DNA of 64,000 bases, taken from a virus. The stretch lies in IMG/VR virus record IMGVR_UViG_3300037419_001192, positions 1 through 64,000 of that record; one strand, written 5' to 3'. The notes beneath the pieces are model-generated. The model was not told the origin of the DNA and searched no databases. It worked only from the letters and a program-made list of their open reading frames with translations. Below are positions 1,157 to 62,630 of the stretch, piece after piece (the stretch's first letter is position 1; each line of letters opens with the position of its first letter). The position numbers and the translations under genes are program-made.

Positions 1157-1191
1157 GATGCTGTAGTCAGATCAATTTCAATGGAGTGAAT

Positions 1192-3075
1192 ATGAAACTG
1201 GTAACGATCTATGACGCCGAAGAACAAACGGCGGATTTCCTCGGAGGCAAGGGCTTTGGCCTGTGGAAGATGCAGCGCGAGGGCATCAACGTGCCACCCG
1301 CGATCATCATTCCGACCGAAGCTTGCCGCGAGTACATGAAAGACCCGAAGAAAGTGATGGGTCAAGTCAAAGACCGCATCAACGACATCACCGATTTCTT
1401 CATCGACAAGTTTGGCTATATGCCGCTCGTATCGGTGCGCTCGGGCGCGAAGATTTCGATGCCGGGGATGCTTGAAACGGTGCTAAATGTCGGGCTAGAT
1501 GGCGTGACGTTCGATTTCTGGAAAGAAAAGCTGGGTGAGGGTTGTGCAATTGATTGCCGCAACCGGCTGGCGCAGATGTATAACGAAACTGTGCTGGGCT
1601 TGAGCAAGGGTAATTGGGAAGCGCCCCCGGCAGCAGCGCTGCAATTGCTGAACTGCATCGAAGCGGTGTTCAAAAGCTGGAATGGCGAGAAAGCAAAAGT
1701 CTACCGTAAGCACCACGGCATTCCGGATGACTTGGGTACGGCAGTGACGATTCAAGCGATGGTGTTCGGCAATATGAATGAGCAATCCGGTGCGGGCGTG
1801 TACTTCACCCGTGATTGCAATACTGGTGACCCTTTTGCCGTGGTCAACTTTGCTGCCAATGCCCAAGGCGAGGATGTAGTGGCGGGCAAAGTGGCGGGCA
1901 TGCATGCGGGTGACTTTGCTGCGTGGAATCCGCCGATCTGCAATGAACTGTTTGAAATCGGGGAGAAGCTGGAAAAGAAAGAAAAGGATGTAGTTGATAT
2001 CGAATTCACTGTGCAGGATGGCAAGCTGTATATCCTGCAATACCGCAAGGCCAAGCGCACGGCGCAAGCGGCGGTGAAATTCGCGGTGGATTTCGCCAAG
2101 GAAGGCTTGATCAGCGAGGAAGAAGCGATCAAGCGGGTGAGCCGGCGTGATATCGATCTGGCTTGCTTGCCGATCATTGATCCGAGTTTCAAGGATAAGC
2201 CAGCGTACACCGGCATTCCGGCATGTTCGGGCGTGGCAATCGGTGTGGTGGTGAAGTCGGCGCAAGCGGCAATTGATTGCCAAAAGCCTTGCATCTTGGT
2301 AACGGACGAAACCACCCCGGATGACATTGCCGGCATGATTGCCGCCAAAGGTGTATTGACGATGAAAGGGGGCGAAACCTCGCATGCCGCAGTGGTGGCA
2401 AGGGGCATGAACAAGCCGTGCGTGGTCGGCCTCGGCAGCAGCACGGTGGACTTCGATGAAGGGGAAGTGATATCGATTTGCGGTGCCACGGGTCGTGTAT
2501 GGGTTGGCGCAGTGCCGATCATCGATGCCAGCGAGAGCCAAGACTTGAAGGAATTCAAGAACCTACTGTGGCAGCAGGCCGAGGCTATTGAAGTCGGGGG
2601 CAGCAATTACTTGCGCATCGATAGCATGTACCTGAATGACCCGAAGGAAATCGTGGCAAAGCTGGTTGCCAGCATCAAGGAGGCAGCGGGAGAAGTCTAT
2701 ATCGATATCCGGTTGCCGAAATACGATGATTCACTGAAGTTCTTCCTTACCTTTTTGAACCCGCAAGACTCGTTTGAAGACCCGATCATCAAGGGATTGG
2801 AGAAATCGCTGACTGAAAAAGACAAGGCACGGGTCAAGATTATCCGCAGCAGCATCGGCCCGATGGCGTTGCCGGAACTGGAATGGGTCTATACCTTGGA
2901 AGACTTGATTCTGGCAAAAGGCGAAATTCAAATGGAGATCAGCAATAGCGACACGGTGCAAAAAGTGCTGGAATGGAAGAAGGATGAAATTAGCCCGGTG
3001 TCAATTGGCGAACTGTTACCGGGGCAGAAATCGTTCATTTCGGAAGATCAATTGATTGCCCTGTTGCTGAAGTGA
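1192..3075 (+). CDS. pyruvate phosphate dikinase-like protein (ATP-grasp + phosphohistidine domains, no PEP/pyruvate TIM barrel)
   Basis: GGKG, SVRSGAKISMPGM, QAMVFGN, AQGEDVVAG, DIEFT, LYILQYRKAKRT, ETTPDDIAGM, GGETSHAAVVARGMNKPCVVG; C-terminal ~180 aa lacks PPDK barrel motifs; GGAG 5 nt before ATG 1192. Confidence 0.9.
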   Translation: MKLVTIYDAEEQTADFLGGKGFGLWKMQREGINVPPAIIIPTEACREYMKDPKKVMGQVKDRINDITDFFIDKFGYMPLVSVRSGAKISMPGMLETVLNVGLDGVTFDFWKEKLGEGCAIDCRNRLAQMYNETVLGLSKGNWEAPPAAALQLLNCIEAVFKSWNGEKAKVYRKHHGIPDDLGTAVTIQAMVFGNMNEQSGAGVYFTRDCNTGDPFAVVNFAANAQGEDVVAGKVAGMHAGDFAAWNPPICNELFEIGEKLEKKEKDVVDIEFTVQDGKLYILQYRKAKRTAQAAVKFAVDFAKEGLISEEEAIKRVSRRDIDLACLPIIDPSFKDKPAYTGIPACSGVAIGVVVKSAQAAIDCQKPCILVTDETTPDDIAGMIAAKGVLTMKGGETSHAAVVARGMNKPCVVGLGSSTVDFDEGEVISICGATGRVWVGAVPIIDASESQDLKEFKNLLWQQAEAIEVGGSNYLRIDSMYLNDPKEIVAKLVASIKEAAGEVYIDIRLPKYDDSLKFFLTFLNPQDSFEDPIIKGLEKSLTEKDKARVKIIRSSIGPMALPELEWVYTLEDLILAKGEIQMEISNSDTVQKVLEWKKDEISPVSIGELLPGQKSFISEDQLIALLLK

Positions 3076-3105
3076 AAGTAGAATGGCGGAAATTTCTTTC
3101 CGCCT

Positions 3106-3516
3106 ATGATCAAGATCGATTGCCCGAAGTGCGGCAGCCCACATGCGTATTACCAAGTCACGGAGTACGACAAGATACTCCGGTGCTTGTGCGGCTATCA
3201 CCGGGTTGTGGAAACCAAGCTACAGGAATTCACGGTCACGCATGCGGATGTAGCGGAAGATGCAAAGCTGCCCCGGCGCGGCAGCCATATCTGGAATACA
3301 TTGATGGCGCTGGCGAATCTGGAGCATGCGACTTCCGCCGAAGTCACGAAGCGCTTGATCGATCTGGGCCATCCCTTCGATATCTCGGATGTCTCCAGTT
3401 ACCTGACGATCTTGCGCAGCAAGGGGTTGGTGATTGCGGTGACGGTGCGGCGCGGCGTGGCGGGCGGATCGAGTTGGGAACTATCTGATGCATGTGATAA
3501 ACTGCTAGGCAACTAA
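3106..3516 (+). CDS. zinc-ribbon + winged-helix DNA-binding protein
   Basis: CPKC...CLC N-terminal; ATSAEVTKRL...ISDVSSYLTILRSKGLV...GGSSWEL wHTH-like pattern. Confidence 0.65.
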   Translation: MIKIDCPKCGSPHAYYQVTEYDKILRCLCGYHRVVETKLQEFTVTHADVAEDAKLPRRGSHIWNTLMALANLEHATSAEVTKRLIDLGHPFDISDVSSYLTILRSKGLVIAVTVRRGVAGGSSWELSDACDKLLGN

Positions 3517-3530
3517 CAATGGAGTGAAAA

Positions 3531-3797
3531 GTGGCTCTTTCGATAGGTATCAATGAAGGTAGCAAAATCCGGGTCGGCAACAAGCTACTGGTCGTGCAAC
3601 AAATTCCCGATGCCCGCCATGTCCATATCCTGTATGGCCGCGAGCCATTCCTGATTACGGATGAAGAACGCACCGAAGTCGAACCCGGCGTGTATATCCA
3701 GTGCGGCGTGAAAGCGGATCGACCGTTTCAAGAAAACTTTTCCCGGCTGGCGTTCGAAGCGCCGCGAGCGGTGGGCATCCACCGGATTCGAGACTGA
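3531..3797 (+). CDS. CsrA/RsmA-like RNA-binding protein with internal insertion
   Basis: N-term MALSIGINEGSKIRVG resembles CsrA MLILTRRVGETLMIG; C-term SRLAFEAPRAVGIHR resembles VRIGVNAPKEVSVHR, including the conserved HR. Confidence 0.6.
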   Translation: MALSIGINEGSKIRVGNKLLVVQQIPDARHVHILYGREPFLITDEERTEVEPGVYIQCGVKADRPFQENFSRLAFEAPRAVGIHRIRD

Positions 3798-4140: not shown

Positions 4141-4163
4141 ACCAACAAACTAAGGAGTAGGAC

Positions 4164-4647: not shown

Positions 4648-4697
4648 GACCGTGTAGCAGTAGCAAAAACAAAGTCAATGGAGTGAAGGAGTAAGCA

Positions 4698-5729
4698 ATG
4701 AGTGAATTTATTCCCAAGAACACGCTTGCGTACTACGATGCGCTGCCGCAAACGAAACTGATTTCCGTCGCGCATATCCCGGCCAAGAATTTGGCAATCA
4801 ATTGCCGCGCTTATCTGGATGGTTGCGGCACCCCGCATCCGGAAACCGAAGCGCTGAGTTTTTATGCGCTGAACCATTTGGCTTCGATTGTGCGCAAGAA
4901 ATTCACTGCGCATGAAGCCTTGCCGGACTGGGCGGAACAAGTGATGCGGATGTATGCCGAAGCGCTGGCGAAGTCGGGGCAGCGGGCGCTAATCTATCTG
5001 GCGCTGATTACGACCCGAGAAGTGCGGCATACCCAGAAATCCAGTGAAGAAAATATCAAGGCGCATCTGGATAAGGAATTCGGCAAGGAGGTCTGGAAGT
5101 ACATCAACAAGCTGCGCCCGTTCAAAGGCAATTCGACTGGCGCAGTCAACCATTTCATGGATACCCCGCCCGATCTGACGCTCGGCCAATGGTTTTCCGG
5201 CGTTACCTATGCCTTCAACAATGGCAGCTACCAGAATGGGTATGGCGGCGTGAAGTGGGGCAAGGTGGCCGAGCCATTGGAGGCATTCATCCACGGCAAG
5301 ATTTCGCTGGAAATGTTGCTGGATACCGTGTGGACGCTGGCGCATAACGGTGGGCCGATTTTCAACAAGGGCATGTGCTACGACCATTACGGCACGGAAC
5401 TGATCCGCATCCTCGATGTGCAGCGTTCCGGGCAGATACCGGAAATGGTGATGTATGACTGGGCGGGGCAGCAATACAGCGATTACACATTAAAGCATCT
5501 GGTAACAAAAGTGCGGGGTGTCTGCCCGGAAGAATTCGGCCCGGAAGTTGACTGGCATTTGGTGGAGGCACTGGGGTCTATAGGTTCCTATGGGAAAGAA
5601 AAGCAAGCCCAAAAAAATAAACCCCAACCTAAGCCCGTGATAATTGAAGGCATGGAAAAGATTGGCGAATACAAAGTCGCGCCGGGCATTGCCGTACCCA
5701 TCCTCTCACGCAAAGGAGTTGCAGCATGA
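4698..5729 (+). CDS. phage hypothetical protein (343 aa)
   Basis: Long ORF with AAGGAG RBS; motif-like YGGVKWGKVA and DTVWTLAHNGGPIFNKG. Confidence 0.75.
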   Translation: MSEFIPKNTLAYYDALPQTKLISVAHIPAKNLAINCRAYLDGCGTPHPETEALSFYALNHLASIVRKKFTAHEALPDWAEQVMRMYAEALAKSGQRALIYLALITTREVRHTQKSSEENIKAHLDKEFGKEVWKYINKLRPFKGNSTGAVNHFMDTPPDLTLGQWFSGVTYAFNNGSYQNGYGGVKWGKVAEPLEAFIHGKISLEMLLDTVWTLAHNGGPIFNKGMCYDHYGTELIRILDVQRSGQIPEMVMYDWAGQQYSDYTLKHLVTKVRGVCPEEFGPEVDWHLVEALGSIGSYGKEKQAQKNKPQPKPVIIEGMEKIGEYKVAPGIAVPILSRKGVAA

Positions 5730-6384: not shown

Positions 6385-6413
6385 AAGGGTGTTCAATCAA
6401 TGGAGTGAGAACA

Positions 6414-12222: not shown

Positions 12223-12255
12223 CTGGCAATCAATTGCCAAACCAAGGAGTGGAAA

Positions 12256-12531: not shown

Positions 12532-12547
12532 ACCAATGGAGTGAACT

Positions 12548-13085: not shown

Positions 13086-13169
13086 TAAGTCGTGGGGGGC
13101 AGAAACCTAGCCCTTCCGAAAAGAAGGAGCTAGGGAGTTTCGATAGATCAAGACGCAATGGAGTGCGAA

Positions 13170-13573: not shown

Positions 13574-13612
13574 GAAGTTGTGGGACGAGATAAACAACCA
13601 ATGGAGTGTGAG

Positions 13613-13813: not shown

Positions 13814-13840
13814 TTTCTAAAATACATCAATGGAGTGAAT

Positions 13841-14228: not shown

Positions 14229-14249
14229 CCTAACCTCAATGGAGTGACT

Positions 14250-14531: not shown

Positions 14532-14783
14532 ATGAAAGTTGTATTCCGTGACCCGCTGATGCTGGTCAATTTCTATGACCCGGAGCATGGCAAATGGCTG
14601 GTGTCCATCGGGGAAGTCCCGTACTGGAGCCTGTCGGAAGACGACGCCATGCCGATCACGCTGGTCAATCTATCGAATCTGGTGCGCAAATATCCGGCAC
14701 TGGAAGATTGCATTGCCTACACCATCAAAGGAGTGAAAGATGAGCCTGACCATCAAGAAAGCAACAACGATCAGCATTCCTGA
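14532..14783 (+). CDS. hypothetical protein
   Basis: AAGGAG RBS. Confidence 0.5.
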   Translation: MKVVFRDPLMLVNFYDPEHGKWLVSIGEVPYWSLSEDDAMPITLVNLSNLVRKYPALEDCIAYTIKGVKDEPDHQESNNDQHS

Positions 14784-15545: not shown

Positions 15546-15585
15546 GGAGTCGTAGTGATGACCAACCAATCAATGGAGTGAGAAA

Positions 15586-16194: not shown

Positions 16195-16205
16195 TGGAGG
16201 CCAGC

Positions 16206-16388
16206 ATGCGAGCCCTGCTTCTACTCTTGCTGCTGGCCGGGTGCGGCGGCGAGAATTCCCAAGAGATTTCCACCACCCGGATCGTCAACCCCGATGGGAG
16301 TTATACCGATTGTCGGACATGGACGTATCAAGGCGAGCGCCATACGTCTTGCTCCACGATTTACCAGTTGCCAGCGCCAAAAAGTTGA
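16206..16388 (+). CDS. small lipoprotein
   Basis: MRALLLLLLLAG-C lipobox; GGAGG RBS. Confidence 0.7.
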   Translation: MRALLLLLLLAGCGGENSQEISTTRIVNPDGSYTDCRTWTYQGERHTSCSTIYQLPAPKS

Positions 16389-16429
16389 TGTAACGTAAGA
16401 ATGTCTCCTGTGGTTCTCGTCCACGGTTT

Positions 16430-16453
16430 GCCCCGCCAAGTGCGGGGCTTTTT
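16430..16453 (+). terminator. intrinsic terminator
   Basis: GCCCCGC-CAAGT-GCGGGGC + TTTTT. Confidence 0.85.
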
Positions 16454-16480
16454 CTTAGGTGCAACCGGCACCGGTAGAAT
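16452..16480 (+). promoter_or_regulatory. putative late-class promoter
   Basis: TTCTTAGG-N15-TAGAAT; same geometry at 21217, 21865, 26043, 46262. Confidence 0.55.
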
Positions 16481-16501
16481 GGTGGTATTTCAAAGGAGGC
16501 A

Positions 16502-17860
16502 ATGATGGCGAAGCGACGAATTCCCTTGGCGGAAAATGGTAACTACTTGGTGGTGGATGAAAACGGTGTAGCGGTGGGCTTGTGCGGCCAGCGGGATAAC
16601 TCCACGTTCTTTGGCTTTGCCGGGAGTTCCAACAATACGAATTCCGGCATGCAGTCAGTTGTCGGGGGTGGCGATAACAATACATCCTCCGGGACATATT
16701 CCGCCATTGGCGGTGGCCGTCGTAATGTTTGTAGCGGGGTCGGGGCGGTCATTGCAGGCGGGGAAAATAATACGCTGGAATCAGGGGCTACGGGTGCTTT
16801 CATTGGCGCGGGCGACCATAACCTTGTCAAGCATGCCTACTGTTGTGTTCCGGGCGGTTCCGGCGCGGCGACAAAAGCCGATTTCAGCACGGTCATGAGC
16901 AGCGCCCCCTTCACCGACCATGGCATGCCGCAGTACGGCAGTGCCCAGATCGGCACCTATTATTTCCGGGGTGTACTCACCCCCGGTAGCTATTCAACGG
17001 GATCGGCGTTCGGCTTGAACCCGGTCATCGAAATCGGTTTCCGCGAATTGATGCGGTTTCGCGGGGAAGCGCAAATCTCTTTCGATAATGGCGATTTCGT
17101 GATCCTTACCTTCTCGGGTCACGCAATGTCCGGCCAGCAAATGGATGGCACATTCTTCCGCGAAGCCGCTTTCGATGCCAGCCCCGCCGTGGCCGCTTCG
17201 CGGGGCATCGGTAGCGATTACGGCATCACGCTACTCGGCCCGATTGCCGGTACGGATACTTGCACATGGCGGCTGATGGTCGTTCCCGGCGCGAACACCA
17301 GCCATGAAGCTCGTATCATGGCGCGGATCGATACGCTGGAAACGAAGTTCGCGTACATCAGCCCGCCGAGCAACAATTCCTATGCCGGGGCACAAGTCGT
17401 GTCGGGAACGCTGGCGGGAGCATCATCCGCCTCTATCACCATCGATGGCACGGTGGGCTGCGTACCGATCACGGATAGCTCCAACCCGCTGCGTGTTGCC
17501 TATAGCAACGATGTCGGCACCGCGTTCGCGCCGCGCTGGTATGCCGTGACGATACAAGGGCCATGCCATGTCGTTGCCACCACGGATAACATGGAAAATC
17601 CGGAAGGAACCATCTGGGATGCCAACATGGATACTGCCCTTGTTGTATTCAAGGGTGCTGACCCGGCAACGGCGGTCTATGTCGGCGGCAATGATGACGA
17701 TAATAATTCGAAGCCGGCCAGCCCGTCCGGGTACTTGAGTACGCTCCAGTTCAATGTGCCGAGCGGGGCGGCAGCCACTTATGTTATCGGGGTATCGGCA
17801 TACAACGGTAACTGGGTTGACGTTCCGATCAACCTGCATGTCGCCACGACCCCGATGTAA
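16502..17860 (+). CDS. putative virion surface/fibre protein (GGG-x-NN repeats, C-terminal PPC-like beta domain)
   Basis: VGGGDNN/IGGGRRN/IAGGENN/IGAGDHN repeats; DTALVVF...NDDD...STLQFNV...TYVIGVSAY. Confidence 0.6.
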   Translation: MMAKRRIPLAENGNYLVVDENGVAVGLCGQRDNSTFFGFAGSSNNTNSGMQSVVGGGDNNTSSGTYSAIGGGRRNVCSGVGAVIAGGENNTLESGATGAFIGAGDHNLVKHAYCCVPGGSGAATKADFSTVMSSAPFTDHGMPQYGSAQIGTYYFRGVLTPGSYSTGSAFGLNPVIEIGFRELMRFRGEAQISFDNGDFVILTFSGHAMSGQQMDGTFFREAAFDASPAVAASRGIGSDYGITLLGPIAGTDTCTWRLMVVPGANTSHEARIMARIDTLETKFAYISPPSNNSYAGAQVVSGTLAGASSASITIDGTVGCVPITDSSNPLRVAYSNDVGTAFAPRWYAVTIQGPCHVVATTDNMENPEGTIWDANMDTALVVFKGADPATAVYVGGNDDDNNSKPASPSGYLSTLQFNVPSGAAATYVIGVSAYNGNWVDVPINLHVATTPM

Positions 17861-17883
17861 GGGTTTGGCAATTGATTGCCACG

Positions 17884-17909
17884 GCCCGCTTCGGCGGGCT
17901 TTTTCTTTT
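17884..17909 (+). terminator. intrinsic terminator
   Basis: GCCCGC-TTCG-GCGGGC + T-run. Confidence 0.9.
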
Positions 17910-17972
17910 GTTCCTTAGAGCAACCCGGTGTCGTACAATAGGGCAACTTTCACGCTCCTACCGGTTTGCCAA

Positions 17973-21213: not shown

Positions 21214-21279
21214 CTGTTGCTCGGCAACATCTTGCTCTGTAGAATCTGCGGCAATCAATTGCCAATTGCGGAGCCCGCC

Positions 21280-21864: not shown

Positions 21865-21893
21865 TTGCTAGGTGGCATTGCCACCAGTACACT
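21865..21893 (+). promoter_or_regulatory. putative late-class promoter
   Basis: TTGCTAGG-N15-TACACT; spacer overlaps inverted repeat GGTGGCA-T-TGCCACC. Confidence 0.55.
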
Positions 21894-21915
21894 TTCGCAC
21901 ATCTGGGAGCCCGCT

Positions 21916-23079: not shown

Positions 23080-23121
23080 TTTGCCAGTAGCAAGAGCCTG
23101 TAACTTAACCAAGGAAATATC

Positions 23122-24534: not shown

Positions 24535-24548
24535 TCAAGGGGGCAGCA

Positions 24549-42170: not shown

Positions 42171-42178
42171 GAAACCCG

Positions 42179-46207: not shown

Positions 46208-46227
46208 GCTGGCAATTGATTGCCACG

Positions 46228-46260
46228 GCCCGCACGGTACGCCCTGCGGGTTTTTTCTTT
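46228..46260 (+). terminator. intrinsic terminator
   Basis: GCCCGCA...TGCGGGT hairpin + T-run. Confidence 0.75.
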
Positions 46261-46261
46261 C

Positions 46262-46290
46262 TGGTTAGGAAGTTTTCCGTGGTGTATTCT
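46262..46290 (+). promoter_or_regulatory. putative late-class promoter
   Basis: TGGTTAGG-N15-TATTCT. Confidence 0.5.
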
Positions 46291-46341
46291 TGGGGGCAAT
46301 TCTTTCTGGCAATCAGTTGCCGCAACCTCAAGAGGAATACC

Positions 46342-46917
46342 ATGGAAAAGATGAATGGCACCGATGCTTGCGGCGCTGCCGTGCAACGTGGCGCTGGTAT
46401 GGGCGAGCAAGCCCAAGCCGAAGGTTTTTATGTGGTCGAATGCCGCGATGCGGATGGCAACCTGAAATGGGCCGATGACATTCACAATCTGGTCACGACC
46501 GAAGGCAAGAATTACAACCTCGATACCTTCCTCGCTGGCGCAGCTTATACCGCTGCATGGGCGCTGGGCCTGATTTCCTCGGTCGGCTATTCCGCTGTCG
46601 CCGCAGGAGACACCGCTGCGCAAATCAATGGCACCAACGGCTGGAAAGAAGCCGGCAACGCCAACGCCCCGACCTACTCGCAAACGGCGCGTCCGACCCC
46701 GGCATTCTCGGCAGCGGCAGGCGGCTCGAAATCGACTTCTTCGGCAGTGGCGTTCTCGATCACTTCGAGCGGCACCGTCAAGGGTTGCTTCCTTTGCTCG
46801 TCTACGACCAAGGATGGCACGACCGGCAAACTGTACAGCGCGGGCCTGTTCTCCGGTGGCGACAAGACCGTGGGCAATGGCGACACGCTGTCCGTAACTT
46901 ACGCCAGTTCCCTGTAA
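46342..46917 (+). CDS. putative virion fibre/filament subunit
   Basis: [23 protein letters not shown] pattern; biased codons; own promoter and terminator. Confidence 0.65.
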
Positions 46918-46934
46918 GCAACATTTCACCAAGG

Positions 46935-46978
46935 GCGGGGTGGAGTGGCAATTGATTGCCGCCACCCCGCTTGTTTTT
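46935..46978 (+). terminator. intrinsic terminator enclosing the 14-bp palindrome
   Basis: GCGGGGTGG..GGCAATTGATTGCC..CCACCCCGC + TTGTTTTT. Confidence 0.7.
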
Positions 46979-46996
46979 GATGCAGCGGAGTAAGGC

Positions 46997-49150
46997 ATGA
47001 CGATCTTCTATCTTGACTATGAGGGCGGCAACGATACCTTGGATGGAAAATCGTTCGCTAACCGCCGTAAAACGATTTCATCGCTGACCGCAACGCAGAC
47101 GCTGGCCGCAGGCGACACGGTACGGGTGATGGCATCCCCCGACCCGACGCTGGTGGGAAATGCCACATGGACGCAATACAGCAAGACCGTCACGTTGGCT
47201 GCTGCGGTGACAGCGACAATTTCCCAATGCGAAACCGCATGGACGCCCTCCACGAATATCACGGCATCGACCACGACCAGCAATAAGCAAGGTACGAATG
47301 CGATCACCCTTGCTGTGGGCGCGTCGTTTACCACCGGCAAAATGGCTTATTCGGCCACGGGCACTCTGGATTTATCGGCGTATCAACAAGTCACATTTTG
47401 GATAAAAAATACCGTTGCCATCACGGCGGGGCAGTATAGCCTGCGCCTGTGCAGCGATACCGCTGGCGCTACCTCGGTACATACGGTTGCGATCCCGGCG
47501 ATACCCTCGACCTCTGAATTCGTGGCGCTGACGGTGAACCTGAGCGCGAATATGTCTTCCAGCATTCAGTCGGTTGCTATGTACCGGGATTCCGGCACGG
47601 GCACCCCGACAATTACGCTGGATTGCATCCTCGCCTGCAAGGCATCCTCCAGCGCAGATTCACTATCGCTGACCAGCCTGATCGGCAAGATGTGCAATTT
47701 GTCATGGGTGGCTTCGACCACCTATGCCTCGGGGGATCAGTGCCGCCCGACGCAGCCGAATCGCAATGGCTACCGTTACCAAGCCAGCGCCGGCACCACC
47801 GGCACTACGGAACCCACATGGCCTAACGAGTTGAATGCTACCGTGACCGATGGCACGGTGACTTGGACTTGCATTGGACTAGAAGATACTTGGTATTGCA
47901 TCCAGTCGATCAGCGGTACGACTGTAACCTTGGATAGCGATGTAAATAGCTCAGCGACCACGGGTCAGGGCTATCCCCGCGCCACCGAAACTGTCGCCAC
48001 TTACAAGCGCGAACCCGTAGCGACTGCCATGGCAAGCAGCTCGGCAACCACGGTGCATCAAACCAACGTCGCTGGTACTTCGGAAACCGCGCTCGTTACC
48101 TATACCGGGGGGTGGAGCCGCACCGATATGTCTACGCAGACCGGCGAAACGTGGTACAGCGGGCAAAACGGTTGGGGTTACGCCTTCTTTCAGCAAAACG
48201 CGCAGCCCTTCATCAAGTTCCAGAATTTAAGCCCGGTTCGGTATAGCCAAGGATTCGGCTTGTACGGGGCCAATTCGTACCTGTTCAACTGCCACAGCAA
48301 TAGCAACTCCGGGAACGGCGTCAATACCAACAATGCCAATCCGCTGATGCGGTTTGTCGGATGCTGCTTTAGTCATAACAGCACATCAAATTTTGCGGAT
48401 AGCCAATATGGCCGCAGAGAATTCATTGCCTGTAGCGCAAATTGCTCGGCCAACACGAGCGGTTGGGAATTTACGGGAACCAACGCTATTTCCGGAGAAT
48501 GGAACACGATTGATGCGCTCAACAACTGGCTTTATGGCGTAAACAAAGGAAACCCTTCCCCGCTCACGATCCGTAACCTGACTACCGCGAATAGCCATTC
48601 CACTATTGGCGTTTCCGCGCAGTCGGGCGCACTGACGTTGGTGAATCCGTCGATTGGCGAATCAACCCCGTTCAATACTCTTACCTATCCGGGCGACAGC
48701 TACGTTTATTGTCAGAAATACCAGCGCACAGCGGATAACCACTACATCGTGACCGACAGCGGCACGATCAAGTCCGCGACCGACCAACGCCATACCGCAT
48801 CCGGCATCAGTTGGAAGTTCAACCCGACCGGTACAAACCGCAAGTCGGGCTACCCGCTGCGCTTGGCACTAGGACGTTACCTGCTGGCGGCTAATACCAC
48901 GGCCACGTTCTCAATCTGGGTGCGGCGCGACAACACGAATATCAATGGCCGCTTGATGGTGGCCGGTGGGCAATTGCTGGGCATGCCCTCCGATACCACG
49001 GTGGACTGCGCCCCGGCGATCAATACATGGGTGCAGTACAGCCTATCGGTGACCCCGACTGAAATCGGTGTGGTGGAAGTGGTTTTCTTGTGCTGGGATG
49101 GCGTCGGCACGACGAATAGCTTGTGGATAGATGATCTAGCCAAGGTGTAA
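46997..49150 (+). CDS. putative fibre/adhesin with carbohydrate-binding and beta-helix regions
   Basis: FYLDYEGGNDTLDGKSFA; WVASTTYASGD...GTTGTTEPTWP...DGTVTW; Asn-rich beta-helix. Confidence 0.65.
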   Translation: MTIFYLDYEGGNDTLDGKSFANRRKTISSLTATQTLAAGDTVRVMASPDPTLVGNATWTQYSKTVTLAAAVTATISQCETAWTPSTNITASTTTSNKQGTNAITLAVGASFTTGKMAYSATGTLDLSAYQQVTFWIKNTVAITAGQYSLRLCSDTAGATSVHTVAIPAIPSTSEFVALTVNLSANMSSSIQSVAMYRDSGTGTPTITLDCILACKASSSADSLSLTSLIGKMCNLSWVASTTYASGDQCRPTQPNRNGYRYQASAGTTGTTEPTWPNELNATVTDGTVTWTCIGLEDTWYCIQSISGTTVTLDSDVNSSATTGQGYPRATETVATYKREPVATAMASSSATTVHQTNVAGTSETALVTYTGGWSRTDMSTQTGETWYSGQNGWGYAFFQQNAQPFIKFQNLSPVRYSQGFGLYGANSYLFNCHSNSNSGNGVNTNNANPLMRFVGCCFSHNSTSNFADSQYGRREFIACSANCSANTSGWEFTGTNAISGEWNTIDALNNWLYGVNKGNPSPLTIRNLTTANSHSTIGVSAQSGALTLVNPSIGESTPFNTLTYPGDSYVYCQKYQRTADNHYIVTDSGTIKSATDQRHTASGISWKFNPTGTNRKSGYPLRLALGRYLLAANTTATFSIWVRRDNTNINGRLMVAGGQLLGMPSDTTVDCAPAINTWVQYSLSVTPTEIGVVEVVFLCWDGVGTTNSLWIDDLAKV

Positions 49151-49159
49151 GGGGGCGCG

Positions 49160-51148
49160 ATGACCGCGACAATGAATCTCGACTATGCGTTTGGCGGGCA
49201 ACCCTATGCGGTGGATGCTCCCAGCGACACGACCCCGGATACCCTTGATTATGCGTTTGGCGGGCAGCCCATCTATGTACCGTCATCCTCTACGGCGTCT
49301 TCGTATTCGGTTTCCGTATCGGAATTTGCCACGGCGGCGGATACGCTGTCGGCAACGGATTCCACCGCTGCCAGCATTACCGAAGCCGCTACGGCGGCGG
49401 ATTCCCCTGCCACCACAGTTGCCACGGCGGTCAGCATTCTGGAAAGCAATACCGCCTCGGATTCCGTTACCGGGGGCAATGTCACCACGGCGGCACAATC
49501 TGAGCCCGCTGCGGCGGGGGATGCCCCCACGGTAGCGGTCAATTTTGCACCCTCGATCACCGAAGCTAATACCGCGCTCGATACACTGACTACTGCGGTG
49601 ACATCGGCAGCCACGGTATTGGAAGCCGCCACGGCGGGGGATAGCACCGATGCCGGCGACCTCGTATCCGATAGCGTGGTGGAGGCTGCTGCCAGCGCCG
49701 ATACGGTTGCCGCGACTTGGCAATCGATTGCCACTGCCATGGAAGCCGCAACAGCCGCAGATGCAGTTGGGGTTTCTATACTGGGAGGTTCTTTCAGCGT
49801 TGCCGAGCCCGCCACGGCGACTGACCAAAGCAATGCGTCGGCTATTTATTTGATCAGCGAAGCGGGCGCAGCCACCGATGCGGTGTCAGCGGGGCGTATC
49901 GTTGCAGCTTCGGTTACCGAAGCGGCCACGGCGGGCGATGGCCTCGATCTGCAACAATCGCTGGGCGTCGCCATCACTGAAGCGGCGGTTGCTGCGGATA
50001 GCGAAACCGCTGCCTTCCATACCGTGCTGCGCCAAAGCGAAACGGCGGCAGCGAATTCGACGCAAGCCAGTACGTTGGTCACCGCAGCCAGCATCAATGA
50101 AGCCGCTGCTGCGACCGATAAGCTATCGGCCACGATCCCCAAGAGCCATCAAGTCAAGGCCAGCTTGGCTGAAGCGGCTGCCGCCAAGGATACGGTATCG
50201 ACCGGCCCGACCAAGACCACGGCCACCATCACTGAAAATGGCTTGGCGGCAGATCAAGTGTCTTCCAGCTATATCGGCCAAGTCACGCCGAATGCCGAGG
50301 CCATGGCTGCCTCCGATCAAGCTGGCAGCACGATGGTTACCCTTGCTACGGCGGCGGAAGCCGCGCTGGCGGATGACCTTGCCGATGGCACGTTGGTATC
50401 GACGCAAGGGGCAGTGGATGCTGCTGCGGCGGCAGATTCCTTATCTGCTGGCGTAACAACGGCGGCTGCTGTGCTGGAGATTGTTGCGGCAGTCGAAATA
50501 GTATCGGGCACTCTCGTCACGGCGGCGGGCGTTACGGAAGCCGCTGCTGCCCTCGATACCGAACAGCAGACCAAGGCGCTGGCCCCGCTGGCAATGCATC
50601 TGGAAGTTGCGCAAGCACTGGATGTCGTGGCTGCGGATCGTATCGTGCTTGCCGATGTCGCAGAGCCGACCGACTACCTGACCGAAGCAACTGATTCTTC
50701 GTTGATCGAACTCTCGGTGCAGCAACTCGAAAAGCTGCATGCCACCGATGCCACCGATGCCGGCTATGCGATCCCGCTGGCAGATACCGAAGCCGCGAAT
50801 GCGAAAGCCATGGTATCGGCAGGCTTGCTGGCGGCAGCAGAGCAATGGGATTACGCGGCAGCACAGGATGACGTCGATGCCGGGATCACGTACCAAGTCA
50901 GCGTGGCTGAAGCCGCCTTCGCTACGGATAGTACCGATGCCGGCGTGATTCGCCTTGCCATCACTGTGGAAATCGCGGCGGCGAGCGATGCCAGCAACCG
51001 CGCCATCGAAGAAATCAAGCCGATCAAGACTGGATTGCATTTCGCCCATATCGGACACGGCAGCTTGAATTGGCAATCAATTGCCAAGCGCGAGGCGAAC
51101 TTTAGTTCGGTGCGCCGTTATCAAGTACCATTTTCCGATGAGCAATAG
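49160..51148 (+). CDS. Ala/Thr-rich repeat fibre protein
   Basis: Many E-x-A-x-A-x-D repeats at roughly 18-20 aa period; duplicated LDYAFGGQP at N-terminus. Confidence 0.65.
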   Translation: MTATMNLDYAFGGQPYAVDAPSDTTPDTLDYAFGGQPIYVPSSSTASSYSVSVSEFATAADTLSATDSTAASITEAATAADSPATTVATAVSILESNTASDSVTGGNVTTAAQSEPAAAGDAPTVAVNFAPSITEANTALDTLTTAVTSAATVLEAATAGDSTDAGDLVSDSVVEAAASADTVAATWQSIATAMEAATAADAVGVSILGGSFSVAEPATATDQSNASAIYLISEAGAATDAVSAGRIVAASVTEAATAGDGLDLQQSLGVAITEAAVAADSETAAFHTVLRQSETAAANSTQASTLVTAASINEAAAATDKLSATIPKSHQVKASLAEAAAAKDTVSTGPTKTTATITENGLAADQVSSSYIGQVTPNAEAMAASDQAGSTMVTLATAAEAALADDLADGTLVSTQGAVDAAAAADSLSAGVTTAAAVLEIVAAVEIVSGTLVTAAGVTEAAAALDTEQQTKALAPLAMHLEVAQALDVVAADRIVLADVAEPTDYLTEATDSSLIELSVQQLEKLHATDATDAGYAIPLADTEAANAKAMVSAGLLAAAEQWDYAAAQDDVDAGITYQVSVAEAAFATDSTDAGVIRLAITVEIAAASDASNRAIEEIKPIKTGLHFAHIGHGSLNWQSIAKREANFSSVRRYQVPFSDEQ

Positions 51149-51156
51149 GAGCCGCC

Positions 51157-51465
51157 ATGAGCTATACCCTTGTTGAAAATGATACCGGTGTACAACTTGA
51201 AGTCACTTGCACCGAGAACGATCCGCCGACGCCCATCGACTTGACCGATTGCACCGTGCTGATTCGCTGGCAAAACATCAATGGCACTTTCGAGCGACAG
51301 ATGACGATCCTCGATATCGCCGGGGGCGTGGTCACGTATACCTTCGGCGCAGCGGAAATCGTCGCGCCTGATATGGAATTTGAATTACAAATTACCAACC
51401 TTGCGGGCAATGTTCGTACTTCTTTGCAAACAATTCGTGAAAGAGTGCGTGAAAGACTCGGTTAA
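51157..51465 (+). CDS. BppU-like fibre attachment protein
   Basis: ENDTG..LEVT...PIDLTDCTV...GVVTYTF...EFELQIT. Confidence 0.6.
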   Translation: MSYTLVENDTGVQLEVTCTENDPPTPIDLTDCTVLIRWQNINGTFERQMTILDIAGGVVTYTFGAAEIVAPDMEFELQITNLAGNVRTSLQTIRERVRERLG

Positions 51466-51545
51466 TACCAAAAATCAGAACGATTAGTGTTGTTCGGAGG
51501 AAATGGTCAGACTACGCTTCGGATAGGTAACCAACGGAGTCTGCC

Positions 51546-51791
51546 ATGCCCGGAATAGGACAACGGCCCGAAGACCATTCGGATATCAAGGTGGACATCG
51601 CCATCCTGAAGAAAGAAGTCGAAGCGGCGCGAGAAATGATGAAGCGGGAATTGGATACGGTCAATTCCACCCTGAAAACCCTTGTCACCCGGATTGAATT
51701 CACCCCGATCAAGATCATCGTGTACGGCCTCGTCGGCTCGATCATGACCGGAGTTCTCGGTGCCATCTTGGCGAATGTGATACGAAAATGA
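51546..51791 (+). CDS. small coiled-coil + TM protein (holin-like)
   Basis: VTRIEFTPIKIIVYGLVGSIMTGVLGAIL. Confidence 0.6.
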   Translation: MPGIGQRPEDHSDIKVDIAILKKEVEAAREMMKRELDTVNSTLKTLVTRIEFTPIKIIVYGLVGSIMTGVLGAILANVIRK

Positions 51792-52258
51792 TACCCCACG
51801 GCATGAAGCAAGCGGTCAGGCAAGAATTCCCGGTGCTGCTGGCAGTCTGTTTCGTCGCCCTGATCCTCGGCGGGCTCGGCGCAATCGGTTGGCTGTATGT
51901 TTTCGAACAGCCTTACCTCGAATACCGCAACATTCCCTTTCCGATCACGGACAACCCGGTGCGGGCCGGCGATTCGGTGCCGTTGACGGTATCGCGGTGC
52001 AGCCGGGCTTCAACGCCGCGCACCTATACCCTCACGCACTCGCTGGAAAACATCAAAACGCATGCCGTGGTGCTGCTGCCCGAAACGCAATCGTATATCC
52101 AGCCGGGTTGCTCCATCGGCCTATCCTCGCTGCATACGGTGCCGAAAGGCACTCCGACCGGGCGCTACCGCGTCTATGGCTTGGCTGAAGTCCGCACCAG
52201 TTTCCGTACCCATTACGTCGAATGGTATAGCCAAGAATTCGATGTGATTGGCAATTGA
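51788..52258 (+). CDS. membrane-anchored periplasmic protein in lysis region
   Basis: N-terminal TM then beta domain with two Cys. Confidence 0.6.
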   Translation: MIPHGMKQAVRQEFPVLLAVCFVALILGGLGAIGWLYVFEQPYLEYRNIPFPITDNPVRAGDSVPLTVSRCSRASTPRTYTLTHSLENIKTHAVVLLPETQSYIQPGCSIGLSSLHTVPKGTPTGRYRVYGLAEVRTSFRTHYVEWYSQEFDVIGN

Positions 52259-52273
52259 TTGCCGGATGCCGCC

Positions 52274-52738
52274 ATGCAAATCTCCGACAACGCCGGCAAG
52301 ATACTGAAGCATTACGAGCAAGGGCCGGGCGGCGATTTTGCGCCGAATCCTTACCTGTGCCCGGCTGGCAAGAGGACGGTGGGCTGGGGCCATGTCATCC
52401 TTCCCTTCGAAAAATTCAACTTCCCGATCAGCCGCGATGAAGCGGATTCGATCCTGCAAACCGATTTGGCAAAGGCACTGATCGCCGTGATGTCCGGCAT
52501 CAAGGTAGCGCTGAACCAAGGCCAGATCGATGCCATTACCTCCTTCACGTTCAATGTCGGGGATCACGCCTTCCTGACATCCACGATGCTCAAGTACATC
52601 AACGCCTCGAAATTCCAGTTGGCTGCCGCCGAGTTTGGCAAATGGGTCTTCGCGGGCGGCATGGTGCTGCCGGGACTGGTGCGGCGCAGAAACTGCGAGT
52701 CCCATTTGTTTTTAACCGGGGAATTGCTGCTGTTCTAA
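52274..52738 (+). CDS. endolysin, phage lysozyme (GH24)
   Basis: HYEQG...YLCPAGKRTVGWGH, SFTFNVG, STML, W.FAGG.VLPGLVRRR. Confidence 0.92.
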   Translation: MQISDNAGKILKHYEQGPGGDFAPNPYLCPAGKRTVGWGHVILPFEKFNFPISRDEADSILQTDLAKALIAVMSGIKVALNQGQIDAITSFTFNVGDHAFLTSTMLKYINASKFQLAAAEFGKWVFAGGMVLPGLVRRRNCESHLFLTGELLLF

Positions 52739-52750
52739 CAGGGAGGGGCT

Positions 52751-53233
52751 ATGGAAAAGCTGATATTGTTTTTTCAGTTGTTTCGCCAAGGGTCTGAAGT
52801 CGCTGATCCTGCAAAGTGGAAGTCGCGCCAGATCACGGCCACGATGCTCGTCGGCGTGTTCGTCATCCTGCAAAAAATTGCCAAGAGCTTCGGCTATGAA
52901 ATCCCGCTCAATGAAGGCGACATGGCTACGGTGGGCGGCGCGATTGTGGTTATCGTCAATGTGGTGCTTACCATGGTCACCAGCAAGCGGGCAGGCTTTC
53001 CCATCCCCGCCGACCAACCCCCATTCCAGCCTGTGGAGCCAGACCGGGTTATCGGCACCGAATCTCGCGGCCCTGTCACGGTTGCAACCGGCAACAATGA
53101 AGACATTGCCTCGTTCACCGTCACGACCAAGAAGCGGGATCAAACTGGAGTGGATCGACCCGCTGCCAAGGCAGACGCGCCATTGCAGCCCGTCGCTAGA
53201 ACCCCTCGCCCGGACGATACCTATTTCGGGTAG
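52751..53233 (+). CDS. two-TM membrane protein (holin-like)
   Basis: GGAGG RBS; two hydrophobic segments; next to lysozyme. Confidence 0.6.
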   Translation: MEKLILFFQLFRQGSEVADPAKWKSRQITATMLVGVFVILQKIAKSFGYEIPLNEGDMATVGGAIVVIVNVVLTMVTSKRAGFPIPADQPPFQPVEPDRVIGTESRGPVTVATGNNEDIASFTVTTKKRDQTGVDRPAAKADAPLQPVARTPRPDDTYFG

Positions 53234-53319
53234 TATTGCGGTGCAGCTACCTTCCGGTGGGGAAATCTATCTGACCGGTATCCAATTCAAGATCAAATGC
53301 ATTTACTAAGGAGTGTGAA

Positions 53320-53960: not shown

Positions 53961-54007
53961 TTCTCACTCCATTGATATCCGGCAGGAACAATTCCCACCG
54001 ACAAACC

Positions 54008-54099: not shown

Positions 54100-54137
54100 G
54101 AAGTCGTAGTGATGACCAACGATCAATGGAGTGAGAA

Positions 54138-54662: not shown

Positions 54663-54680
54663 GACCTTCAAGGAGTGAAC

Positions 54681-54908: not shown

Positions 54909-54932
54909 TTGCCATTTTCAATGGAGTGGCTG

Positions 54933-56752: not shown

Positions 56753-56787
56753 GGGTCTGTCGCAAACAACCAACCAATGGAGTGAAA

Positions 56788-57909: not shown

Positions 57910-57931
57910 TTCACCTAAAGGAGTAGTCAAA

Positions 57932-58628: not shown

Positions 58629-58778
58629 ATGGAAATCAAATGGCTTTGCATCATGGCAGCGGTAATGATGGTAGCGATGTTCGGCTCGATAGGCGTAACG
58701 GAATACCAGAAGGGCCAAGCCAAGATCGCTTGCTATGAAGCGGCAAAGACCAACCCGAAAATCAATTGCAAGGAGTGA
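58629..58778 (+). CDS. small membrane protein (49 aa)
   Basis: Read manually: MEIKWLCIMAAVMMVAMFGSIGV...C..AAK...C. Confidence 0.5.
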   Translation: MEIKWLCIMAAVMMVAMFGSIGVTEYQKGQAKIACYEAAKTNPKINCKE

Positions 58779-60946: not shown

Positions 60947-62248
60947 GTGTCTTTCAAGGTCGGTTACAAACTATTAAAACGGTTGTGCCAAGATCAAAAA
61001 CCACTCGCTTGGCACCAATGCAAACTCACCAAAGAGTTGTTTGACGGAACGGAAGAACAGCAAGCGTATCAATGGGTCGATGCCCATATCACGAAGCACC
61101 ATGCCTTGCCCTCGGTCGATACGCTGGGGCAGGCATTTCCCGAGTTCAAGCAATTCGATGCACCCGAGCCGGTCAGCTATTACCTCGAAACGGTAGAGCG
61201 GCGCTTCAAGATGCGGGTCATGAACCAAGCCAATATCGCCAGCCAAGCGATTTTGAAAGAAGCGCAATCGGATTTGGTTGGCGCTCCTGCCAAGGTCGAA
61301 GAAGCGGCAAAGATATTGCGCGAAGCCACTGACAAAATTACCCGGAATGCTTTCCGCACGAAGCTGATCGATTTCGGTGTCGAAGGCCCGAGCCTTGTGT
61401 TGCAGGAATACCACTCGCTGAATGCGAAGGAAAGCAAGGTCGTCTTTGGCTGGCCGTATCTCGATGATCAATCCGGTGGAGCGCTGCCCGGCGATTTGAT
61501 TTCCTTCGTTGGTCGCCCGGCATCCGGCAAGACGTTCATGGGCTTGAATGCGGCACTGAAGAATTGGATTCAGGGCGCGAACATCTTGTTCGTTTCCATG
61601 GAAATGAACCCGATGGCAATTTCGCAGCGCTTGACCGCGATGTATGCCCATGTGTCATTGACCGCGCTGAAAACGAGTGGCTTTCCGACTGCCAGCTACA
61701 AAAAATTTGCCGGCAGCCTGCAATCAATTGCCAATGAAAAGGCGAAGTTGTATATCGTCAATGGCAACTTGGCCGCGACTTGCGAAGACATTTATACGCT
61801 GGCCGATCAACTGCAAGTCGATGCGGTGTTCAACGATGGCGCGTATTTGATGAAGCACAAGAATCCCCGGCTGGATCGCTTCACGAAAGTGGCCGAGAAC
61901 ACCGAAATGATGAAGCACTTTACCGAAGTGCTTGCCATCCCGACATTTGCTTCATGGCAGTTGAACCGTGAAGCGGCCAAGAAAGTCAAGAAAGACAAGG
62001 AAACCGTTGGACTCGAAGATATTTCAATGTCCGATGCGATTCCCCAAGCATCCTCGATGGTGCTAGGATTGTTCCAAGAAGAAAGTGTCGAAACCAGTGA
62101 AGGCCGGATCATCGAAGTCATGAAAGGCCGCGATGGGCAAGTGGGCCGGTTCTTGATCCACTGGGATTTCGAAAAAATGAATTTCGATCAAATCGTGGAT
62201 ACGGAAGCGGCACCGCTGCCATCCCCGGAAGATGAACAATACATCTAG
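60947..62248 (+). CDS. DnaB-like replicative helicase
   Basis: GRPASGKT, FVSMEM, NDGAYLM, WQLNR, MKGRDG. Confidence 0.92.
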   Translation: MSFKVGYKLLKRLCQDQKPLAWHQCKLTKELFDGTEEQQAYQWVDAHITKHHALPSVDTLGQAFPEFKQFDAPEPVSYYLETVERRFKMRVMNQANIASQAILKEAQSDLVGAPAKVEEAAKILREATDKITRNAFRTKLIDFGVEGPSLVLQEYHSLNAKESKVVFGWPYLDDQSGGALPGDLISFVGRPASGKTFMGLNAALKNWIQGANILFVSMEMNPMAISQRLTAMYAHVSLTALKTSGFPTASYKKFAGSLQSIANEKAKLYIVNGNLAATCEDIYTLADQLQVDAVFNDGAYLMKHKNPRLDRFTKVAENTEMMKHFTEVLAIPTFASWQLNREAAKKVKKDKETVGLEDISMSDAIPQASSMVLGLFQEESVETSEGRIIEVMKGRDGQVGRFLIHWDFEKMNFDQIVDTEAAPLPSPEDEQYI

Positions 62249-62278
62249 TAACAGCTAGTCACCACAACGGAGTGAGAC

Positions 62279-62572
62279 ATGCTTTCCTTGAGTTCGATCA
62301 ATGGTTGGCACTTGCTGGTTGCCTCTGGGTCATTGTTGCTCCTATTCTGTATCCTGTTGTACAGCAAGCCCCCCAGTAGTGCGAAGGGCCGGTGGATCGC
62401 AGAAGTCTGGACTGTCTCCCCGTTCAACCATGGCACTCAAGTCCGCTGGCGACGCCGCTATAAATACCGCTGGCAAGCCGTATGGGCAGCCAAAGCCGAA
62501 GCCCGGTTGATGGATCATATCGGCGCGGTTCACTGGGAATTCGGTATCGACTGGGGAGTGCGCGGGCTTTGA
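62279..62572 (+). CDS. membrane-anchored hypothetical protein
   Basis: N-terminal TM; CA-ACGGAG-TG leader. Confidence 0.55.
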   Translation: MLSLSSINGWHLLVASGSLLLLFCILLYSKPPSSAKGRWIAEVWTVSPFNHGTQVRWRRRYKYRWQAVWAAKAEARLMDHIGAVHWEFGIDWGVRGL

Positions 62573-62597
62573 CAAACTGGTGAGTGTCGTTTATACT
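62569..62597 (+). promoter_or_regulatory. sigma70-type early promoter
   Basis: TTGACA(AAC)-N17-TATACT. Confidence 0.8.
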
Positions 62598-62630
62598 TCC
62601 ATCTGATCAATCAAACCATGGAGGGGCAAA

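Follow-up and report, generated by a model that had tools for sequence, protein, structure and literature searches.

Why should so many genes of one soil phage begin behind the same few letters, and does the phage itself encode the protein that reads them? The question arises from the window analyzed here, the first 64,000 nucleotides of IMG/VR virus record IMGVR_UViG_3300037419_001192, which totals 102,690 bp with direct terminal repeats. The element is a short leader motif, most often CA-ATGGAG-TG, that places the GGAG of a Shine-Dalgarno (SD) sequence in the loop of a small hairpin, and the candidate regulator is the 88-aa product (P0001) of the open reading frame (ORF) at 3531..3797, which resembles the translational regulator CsrA. 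A first-pass annotation made from the letters alone had proposed that the two belong to a phage translational switch. In our assessment the best reading is a phage-owned translational repressor-operator pair comparable to that of T4 RegA, a proposal to which we give about an even chance.

The element, its position and its strand bias are established by several observations. CAANGGAGTG is present in 16 copies in the window, compared with a mean of 0.33 and a maximum of 3 among 100 shuffles. A motif scan recovered every leader position reported in the first-pass annotation, with CAATGGAGTG at 1179, 3517, 4676, 6398, 12534, 13156, 13599, 13828, 14237, 15571, 54124, 54919, 56775 and, on the minus strand, 53974, CAAAGGAGTG at 14726 and CAACGGAGTG at 62265. 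The reported variants CGCA-ATGGAG-TGCG (13154), CTA-AAGGAG-TAG (57915) and CC-ATGGAG-GG (62616) are likewise all present, and the second loop base varies as described, the loop being A-(U/A/C)-G-G-A-G. The wider pattern CA-A?-N-GGAG-TG occurs 38 times on the plus strand and 2 times on the minus strand of the whole genome, where 2.7 are expected per strand. A scan with a broader hairpin-SD definition (loop A-(N)-GGAG, at least two closing pairs, near a start codon) gave 27 sites in the window; six forms with a 5-nt loop, at 4150, 5710, 12242, 53307, 54667 and 58769, had been absent from the first reading. All copies lie on the coding strand, 3-7 nt 5′ of the ATG or GTG with which an ORF begins, and the GGAG of the motif therefore serves as the SD sequence. 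The one clear exception is the site at 4675, where 14 nt separate this GGAG from the ATG at 4698 and 6 nt separate a second AAGGAG from the same ATG, which agrees with the earlier description of a motif upstream of a separate SD.

Other ways of reading the repeated letters were considered and set aside. A site acting at the level of DNA was rejected, as a strand bias and a constant distance to the start codon suggest that the motif works in RNA. A repeated promoter-leader cassette was rejected because the sequences between promoter and motif differ from site to site. The commonest form of the motif contains ATG-GAG-TGA, which could be taken for a two-codon mini-ORF; this is probably incidental because the AAG or ACG variants lack the ATG, as do the 5-nt-loop forms.

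Covariation of the flanks supports their pairing. Within the studied phage, pairing is kept despite letter changes in CTA/TAG (twice), TGA/TCA, CAA/TTG, GGA/TCC, CGCA/TGCG and CC/GG, and relatives carry stems of 4-5 bp, such as CTCA/TGAG, CGCA/TGCG, TCCA/TGGA, CCCA/TGGG and CGCTA/TAGCG. The formal analysis used 78 sites from 9 genomes, selected solely for A-[ANGGAG]-T beside a start codon. Their covariation score of 0.252 compares with 0.103±0.015 in shuffles, none of 500 reaching the observed value, and with 0.014-0.095 in slid controls, while changes on both sides fill 60 cells versus 30.7±4.2. The second pair is CG in 58 cases, UA in 8, AU in 2, GC in 2 and GU in 1, and is unpaired in 5. 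The outer pairs, which were not used in selection, are formed in 42 of 87 cases versus 33.2±2.9 in within-genome shuffles (8 of 5000 reach this value). A lack of covariation in relatives had been set beforehand as a possible refutation of the proposed switch, and the result went the other way. Both features expected of an operator hairpin are present, namely a GGA in the loop of a short stem-loop overlapping the SD and compensatory change in the stem. Some relatives favor the 5-nt loop (CA-AGGAG-UG); the use of 5-nt or 6-nt loops had no obvious link to protein similarity across the phages compared.

The hairpin itself is only marginally stable. The consensus UCA-AUGGAG-UGA forms three pairs with a computed free energy of +1.1 kcal/mol, and the free hairpins of relatives with 4-bp stems range from -1.2 to -3.3 kcal/mol, so that the SD should be open unless something clamps it. 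These values bear on a rather unlikely alternative, in which the element is a protein-independent ribosome-binding site design specific to the clade: the GGAG would be looped and the flanks would tune 30S recruitment, standby binding or mRNA stability for genes expressed early from host promoters, and the targets of the CsrA-like protein would lie elsewhere, for instance among host mRNAs or small RNAs. A hairpin too weak to hide the SD (+1.1 kcal/mol) and a motif that is itself the SD at nearly every site favor such a design. It does not account for flanks that covary as base pairs, which ribosome pairing leaves unexplained, nor for the site at 4675, where the element lies upstream of a separate SD.

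The same alternative can be examined through the anti-SD of 16S rRNA. A bacterial genome that contains a phage region of this kind has the canonical 16S 3′ end GGAUCACCUCCUUU. An AAGGAG-UGA sequence could pair with this tail if one rRNA base bulges; the perfect complement, however, is avoided. Before ATG in the studied phage, GGAGTGA occurs 28 times and the perfect anti-SD complement GGAGGTGA 0 times, and the corresponding numbers in the Stenotrophomonas phage Summit are 18 and 2. The longest other complementarity of the element to that 16S rRNA is 7 nt. An extended anti-SD match, which the first-pass annotation had itself listed among the observations that would refute its idea, or any other 16S pairing, was rejected on these grounds as the main explanation. 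In the same 4.7-Mb bacterial genome CAANGGAGTGA occurs in 16 copies, 9 of them within 24 kb of the phage-like part. The element is thus neither a general bacterial signal nor just a good SD.

The gene-class bias of the element is equally established. Of 103 SD-type starts outside the packaging/virion/lysis block, 30 have the strict motif in front of them, compared with 0 of 20 inside it (Fisher p=0.003). The block, at 16200..53250 on the plus strand, has a single weak site, found in the wider scan at 36593, and its SDs are mostly of the GGAGG type, in line with the earlier remark that structural genes essentially lack the motif. Summit shows the same split between classes, with no site in its annotated portal-to-spanin block (41-28,979) and all sites beyond 29 kb. 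Late genes of the studied phage presumably do without the element when they are translated in the same cell, which is a further difficulty for a protein-independent ribosome-binding site. Promoter-like sequences are closely associated with the motif: each of the ten exact-TTGACA sites in 1-16.5 kb and 53-64 kb has a motif 19-70 nt downstream of it and points toward a motif-bearing gene, several with an extended -10 TG, and thus many copies of the element are in short leaders behind host-type (sigma-70-like) promoters. Other copies are intercistronic, for example that at 12534.

Across the phage clade, motif and protein are co-inherited. The gene for P0001 belongs to an early module at 1192-6355 (PPDK-like gene, small gene, CsrA-like gene, small gene, phosphatases) whose synteny is retained in all relatives. 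Its homologues CPT_Summit_142 and DLP05_139 are annotated as hypothetical and stand in the order PPDK, small gene, this gene, small gene, phosphatase. We counted the motif in Summit, five IMG/VR contigs, four metagenome contigs of the clade and a region of a metagenome-assembled genome (MAG). It is at least 10-fold enriched in every one of these and almost exclusively on the coding strand, the counts on the coding and other strand being 22/1 in Summit, 11/0 in L003, 5/0 in L006, 4/1 in L007, 5/0 in L008, 8/0 in L009, 5/0 in L010, 8/0 in L012, 3/0 in L020, 8/1 in L022, 1/0 in L023 and 5/0 in L024. These contigs span 45-64% GC and share the syntenic module, which encodes the protein, at 40-58% amino-acid identity; megablast detected no match at the nucleotide level. 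A fifth clade metagenome contig of only 2.9 kb (L021) has zero copies. The MAG region (G001:C20:1-50000; L030-L032, L012) is about 50 kb of phage-like DNA of the clade that opens a 374-kb Acidobacteriaceae contig; its GC content is 0.55 versus 0.58-0.66 for the rest, and the virion module is missing. This part could be what remains of a prophage or a chimera created during assembly, and for that reason the Acidobacteriaceae label is not relied on for host range.

What kind of protein travels with the element? Judged from profile comparisons and a predicted structure, ORF 3531-3797 is a divergent, long-form member of the CsrA superfamily and not a canonical CsrA. A family profile search collected 315 cluster representatives (50% identity) at E<=0.001, which is a lower bound on family size, and nearly all members are 85-100 aa long. 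P0001 alone matches the Pfam CsrA family PF02599 with 12.2 bits (E 0.19) over residues 69-85 only; of 133 relatives, 84 match PF02599 at E<=1 (best 1.8e-7), compared with 3 for the family in second place, and no other recurs. The family profile spans both ends of a solved CsrA homologue, aligning residues 1-28 to 1-29 and 70-87 to 30-47. Near-invariant positions are M1, L3, G6, V22, V54, G59, R72, A77, P78, I83 and R85; A77 is invariant, and R72, P78, I83, R85 and L3 are at least 90% conserved. The N-terminus reads MALSIG, of which MALS is conserved across the family. At the C-terminal end, S-R-L-A-F-E-A-P-R-x-x-x-I-H-R mirrors the V-R-I-G-V-N-A-P-K-E-V-S-V-H-R of CsrA, so that the β4-β5 signature is present, and this segment aligns to CsrA 28-47 with R85 in the place of CsrA Arg44, a residue that reportedly has a role in RNA binding.

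The predicted structure extends this comparison and complicates it. AlphaFold gives a confident all-β model of nine strands with no helix (predicted local distance difference test, pLDDT, 89.9 and 93.8), and the monomer model is compact (predicted template-modeling score, pTM, 0.79-0.83) and compatible with a monomer or a dimer; the CsrA family is characterized by an interdigitated homodimer that has two RNA sites. The canonical size and fold, 60-75 aa with five β-strands and a C-terminal α-helix, do not apply to this protein of 88 aa and nine strands, in which about 40 extra residues form four β-strands and the C-terminal helix is missing. With a structural aligner, RsmF/RsmN chains were matched at Z 4.0-4.5 with a root-mean-square deviation of 2.3-2.4 Å over 49-50 residues and 30-31% identity. 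No other entry in the structural-aligner lists comes near this identity; by Z, generic β-sandwiches rank above these chains, reaching 8.9. The ESM Atlas automatically names the protein's own cluster carbon storage regulator family, and a neighboring, mostly viral cluster of 98-aa proteins (TM 0.80) has PF02599 on 91% of its members. The mapping of the N-terminal half onto CsrA is ambiguous, since each of the three methods used places it in a different register. Probabilities from hhalign against CsrA are low (17-25%) because the CsrA homologue set held only near-identical enterobacterial sequences. A PHROGs search with the protein gave no match, and phmmer against the PDB gave chance matches only. 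An internal tandem duplication producing a single-chain pseudo-dimer of 2 x 44 aa was rejected, as the halves do not align (hhalign P 0.24). A canonical CsrA was not found elsewhere in the studied phage.

The resemblance to CsrA claimed in the first-pass annotation therefore stands as relatedness, with the profile match at both ends and the RsmF/RsmN identity behind it, but the protein scores below the Pfam threshold and its extra part is about 40 residues. The structural comparison that had been proposed came out equally mixed, the RsmF/RsmN match standing beside a non-significant Foldseek result and higher-scoring β-sandwiches. The gene does carry the motif in its own leader, as had been noted (CA-ATGGAG-TG at 3517-3526, before the GTG at 3531). 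This own-leader copy is seen only in the studied phage and in none of 8 relatives; autoregulation is therefore not a conserved feature, and a protein whose own leader usually lacks the motif also sits comfortably with a protein-independent ribosome-binding site.

In the repressor-operator proposal, the operator would be an 11-nt RNA, C-A-[A-(U)-G-G-A-G]-U-G-(A), with the SD GGAG in the loop of a marginally stable 2-4-bp hairpin. The operator set would comprise about 40 early/middle genes, and the regulator would be the 88-aa long-form CsrA-superfamily protein from the conserved early module. As the protein accumulates it would clamp the GGA loop and closing pairs, much as RsmE does on the hcnA SD; the clamped hairpin would block 30S binding, and early/middle translation would be shut off. 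Virion and lysis genes, with plain GGAGG-type SDs that lack the flanks, would escape, and the outcome would resemble that of T4 RegA. We infer the binding of the element by the protein, repression as its effect, and the timing.

A number of observations weigh against this proposal. The 12.2 bits of P0001 fall short of the PF02599 gathering threshold of 27 bits, the basic β1 residues Arg6/Arg7 that accompany Leu2/Leu4 in CsrA are not conserved (L3 is retained, position 6 is Gly and there is no Arg pair), and two Foldseek runs against the PDB returned nothing significant (E about 0.5, prob 0.85). On the RNA side, the stem of the studied phage is only 2-3 bp and unstable by itself (+1.1 kcal/mol). 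Summit, L009 and L010 keep only CA..UG plus a conserved 3′ A; recognition of sequence rather than of a hairpin is therefore possible, and the minimal conserved unit is the 11-mer CA-AUGGAG-UGA. In most leaders there is a single site; a canonical dimer of CsrA usually bridges two. Four family members that fall outside the clade (L025, L027-L029), in unrelated contexts, have no repeated SD motif in their 5-12-kb flanks, a point that also favors a protein-independent ribosome-binding site. The co-occurrence of motif and protein comes from a single phage clade and so may reflect shared descent only. Finally, a host that has a CsrA/RsmA of its own could supply the binder.

This last point leads to a second alternative, which we consider improbable: the hairpins would dock host CsrA/RsmA, tying early translation to the state of the host Csr/Rsm system or soaking up host CsrA, and the phage protein would be a competitor or modulator. 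An A-N-G-G-A-N loop over the SD is the form of RsmE/CsrA sites, as has reportedly been described for both proteins. The bacterial genome with the phage-like MAG region encodes a canonical CsrA (39.5 bits). The Xanthomonadaceae, the family of Summit's host genus, have RsmA (PMC3937308). However, the phage would bear a high cost if an abundant host protein repressed its early genes; the closing pair, the invariant last loop G and the 3′ UGA differ from the host consensus and yet are conserved at 45-64% GC; and the clade always carries its own CsrA relative.

A third alternative, and a highly improbable one, is that the element is the target of an endoribonuclease that inactivates early mRNAs. 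T4 RegB cuts GGAG in early-gene SDs (PMC3014915), and the GGAG here is invariant, restricted to early/middle genes and located at the SD. No RegB-like nuclease was identified, though no search was aimed at one. Late genes also have SDs that contain GGAG (GGAGG), and cleavage would leave the co-inheritance of the CsrA relative unexplained. A phage sponge RNA was rejected as well: there is no GGA-rich cluster and no Rfam match, including in the ORF-poor stretch at 75.3-76.7 kb. The ORF-poor DNA beyond the window, taken as about 74.5-76.6 kb (L017 10500-12600), holds a single tRNA-Cys (L017 11420-11500).

Comparison with known systems places the repressor-operator pair between several precedents. 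It shares with CsrA/RsmA/RsmE leaders (RsmE-hcnA, CsrA-glgC, cstA) a GGA in an A-N-G-G-A-N hexaloop over the SD, closed by pairs that binding of a protein could stabilize, a small β-rich partner of the same superfamily, and 30S block as the expected outcome. It differs in that the protein is encoded by the phage, is 88 aa long, lacks the C-terminal helix and has about 40 additional residues in β-strands; in that the closing pair is A-U then C-G, not C-G; in that neither the last loop base nor the 3′ UGA varies; and in that a leader usually has a single site. Multiple GGA sites in one leader, which a CsrA dimer could bridge, were not found, each gene having one site except at 4675-4691, where two GGAG are 8 nt apart. 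The regulon, too, is of a different kind, about 40 of the phage's own early/middle genes with no sponge RNA found. The closest solved chains are those of RsmN/RsmF from Pseudomonas aeruginosa (PDB 4kji, 4krw, 4k59), although the Foldseek match is not significant. In RsmN/F an α-helix insert is placed between β2 and β3, while the phage protein has its extra part, a loop and four β-strands, after the CsrA-like N-terminal strands and before the β4-β5 segment. RsmN/RsmF is nevertheless a precedent for rearrangement in the CsrA family by insertion of an internal α-helix (PMC3791407).

CsrA-family genes on mobile DNA have been described before. Sobrero and Valverde 2020 found them in 30 of 2517 phage genomes by PSI-BLAST (PMC7366521); their list has canonical-size alleles such as RsmM, no Stenotrophomonas phage, and no targets or function (PMC7366521). 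The gene studied here is likewise a CsrA-family gene on a phage, but of the long form. Plasmid pQBR103 similarly carries its own CsrA-family translational regulator, RsmQ, which is canonical and acts on host targets (PMC9928087), whereas the evident targets here are the phage's own genes. The sites of T4 RegA are AU-rich and unstructured; the phage operator, in contrast, is a defined GGA hairpin, and RegA is not homologous to the CsrA-like protein. Many early mRNAs are shut off by RegA, a phage-encoded protein that attaches to their translation-initiation regions (PMC3014915). No functional study of a phage CsrA regulon was found in the literature. The novel elements are the family of long-form proteins, a regulon of this size and with this specificity for one class of genes, covariation established by a formal test, and the occurrence of operator and protein alike in phages that are in culture.

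The individual sites, all on the plus strand except one, are arranged as follows. In the early module, TTCA-ATGGAG-TGAA (1177..1190) precedes the PPDK-like gene (1192-3075, ATG 1192), which has PPDK_N and PEP-utilizers mobile domain only, with a TTGACA promoter-like site at 1129-1156. The CsrA-like gene (3531..3797, GTG start), syntenic with CPT_Summit_142 and DLP05_139, is followed by a 113-aa ORF (3799-4140) that starts 2 nt past its stop and has no Pfam match; the DLP_5 gene in this position, DLP05_140, is annotated as a transcriptional repressor. Two DSP/PTP-type phosphatase genes each have a 5-nt-loop form, CTA-AGGAG-TAG (4150..4160) before the gene at 4164-4646 (ATG 4164) and the 4-bp GCAA-AGGAG-TTGC (5710..5722) before that at 5726-6355 (ATG 5726). 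Between them, TCA-ATGGAG-TGA (4675..4686) is the copy upstream of the ATG at 4698 and of the separate AAGGAG SD (4686-4691), with a TTGACA promoter-like site at 4620-4647. The same TCA-ATGGAG-TGA at 6397..6408 precedes a 272-aa gene (ATG 6414; promoter-like site 6356-6384).

Downstream of the family A DNA polymerase gene (8234-10618) the sites precede a run of smaller genes: CCA-AGGAG-TGG (12242..12252) a 91-aa gene (ATG 12256); CA-ATGGAG-TG (12534..12543, the intercistronic copy) a 168-aa gene (ATG 12548); CGCA-ATGGAG-TGCG (13154..13167, 4 bp, -2.8 kcal/mol) a 64-aa gene (ATG 13170; promoter-like site 13058-13085); CA-ATGGAG-TG (13599..13608) a 66-aa gene (ATG 13613; promoter-like site 13545-13573); TCA-ATGGAG-TGA (13827..13838 and 14236..14247) a 65-aa gene (ATG 13841) and an 83-aa gene (ATG 14250); TCA-AAGGAG-TGA (14725..14736) a 123-aa gene (ATG 14740); and TCA-ATGGAG-TGA (15570..15581) a 202-aa DUF6011 gene (ATG 15586; promoter-like site 15518-15545). 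The block that follows includes the portal gene (17928-19751) and a 2594-aa ORF of tape-measure size (27644-35428).

Beyond the block, the weak variant TA-AGGAG-TG (53307..53315) precedes a 90-aa gene (ATG 53320). A divergent pair of promoter-like sites at 54.0-54.1 kb points toward TCA-ATGGAG-TGA on the minus strand (53964..53975; 87-aa gene, ATG 53960; promoter-like site 54037-54009) and on the plus strand (54123..54134; 66-aa gene, ATG 54138; promoter-like site 54072-54099). The 4-bp, 5-nt-loop form TTCA-AGGAG-TGAA (54667..54679) precedes a 75-aa ORF (start 54681), and TCA-ATGGAG-TGG (54918..54929) the AAA ATPase gene (54933-56129, ATG 54933). The remaining sites are CA-ATGGAG-TG (56775..56784; 189-aa gene, ATG 56788; promoter-like site 56725-56752), the compensatory variant CTA-AAGGAG-TAG (57915..57926; 142-aa gene, ATG 57932), CA-AGGAG-TG (58769..58777; 86-aa gene, ATG 58782) and, past the DnaB-like helicase gene (60947-62248), CA-ACGGAG-TG (62265..62274; 97-aa gene, ATG 62279) and CC-ATGGAG-GG (62616..62625; 156-aa gene, ATG 62631; promoter-like site 62569-62597).

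A second repeated sequence, the palindrome (T)GGCAAT-YR-ATTGCC(A), precedes many genes, with more than 39 copies genome-wide (for example 12227-12240, 15494-15509 and 54899-54914). It often directly adjoins the hairpin-SD, as where the copy at 54899-54914 is followed by TCAATGGAG at 54918, and related words (ATCAATTGCA) are over-represented 5′ of Summit genes too. The palindrome is likely a DNA operator or promoter element. A tRNA scan of sequence outside the window found one tRNA in the studied phage; Summit has a tRNA cluster that includes an annotated suppressor tRNA (L005 1872-2527, corresponding to Summit 49872-50527). The portal DNA indicates a distant kinship to the Stenotrophomonas phages Summit, DLP_3 and DLP_5 of the genus Delepquintavirus, and a megablast of 12 kb against deposited phages gave zero matches and thus no near-identical phage. 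A sequencing-run search found identical DNA in soil and rhizosphere metagenomes; no RNA datasets were among the listed runs carrying the phage DNA.

Temporal control in phages is mostly understood as transcription, and T4 RegA is among the few known global translational repressors that they encode. Here the genome sequence by itself reveals a candidate regulator and a defined operator present in about 40 copies, both of them conserved across phages of very different base composition. Because operator and protein are also present in the cultured phages Summit, DLP3 and DLP5 of a tractable host, the idea is directly testable. In its full form, which we hold at slightly below an even chance, a widespread clade of ~100-kb soil/Stenotrophomonas phages would exert global control over its own genome through a long-form CsrA, remodeled and possibly single-site, clamping one GGA hairpin on about a third of the genes and turning off the early/middle program in a RegA-like circuit whose operator code, CA-AUGGAG-UGA, is distinct from the host's. 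If true, this would supply a compact orthogonal protein-RNA switch and would give a function to a family of at least 315 clusters, whose members are hypothetical in the three cultured phages checked and have no informative names in metagenomes. It would also show the fold of a bacterial global regulator remodeled, as a long form with extra β-strands, for viral use.

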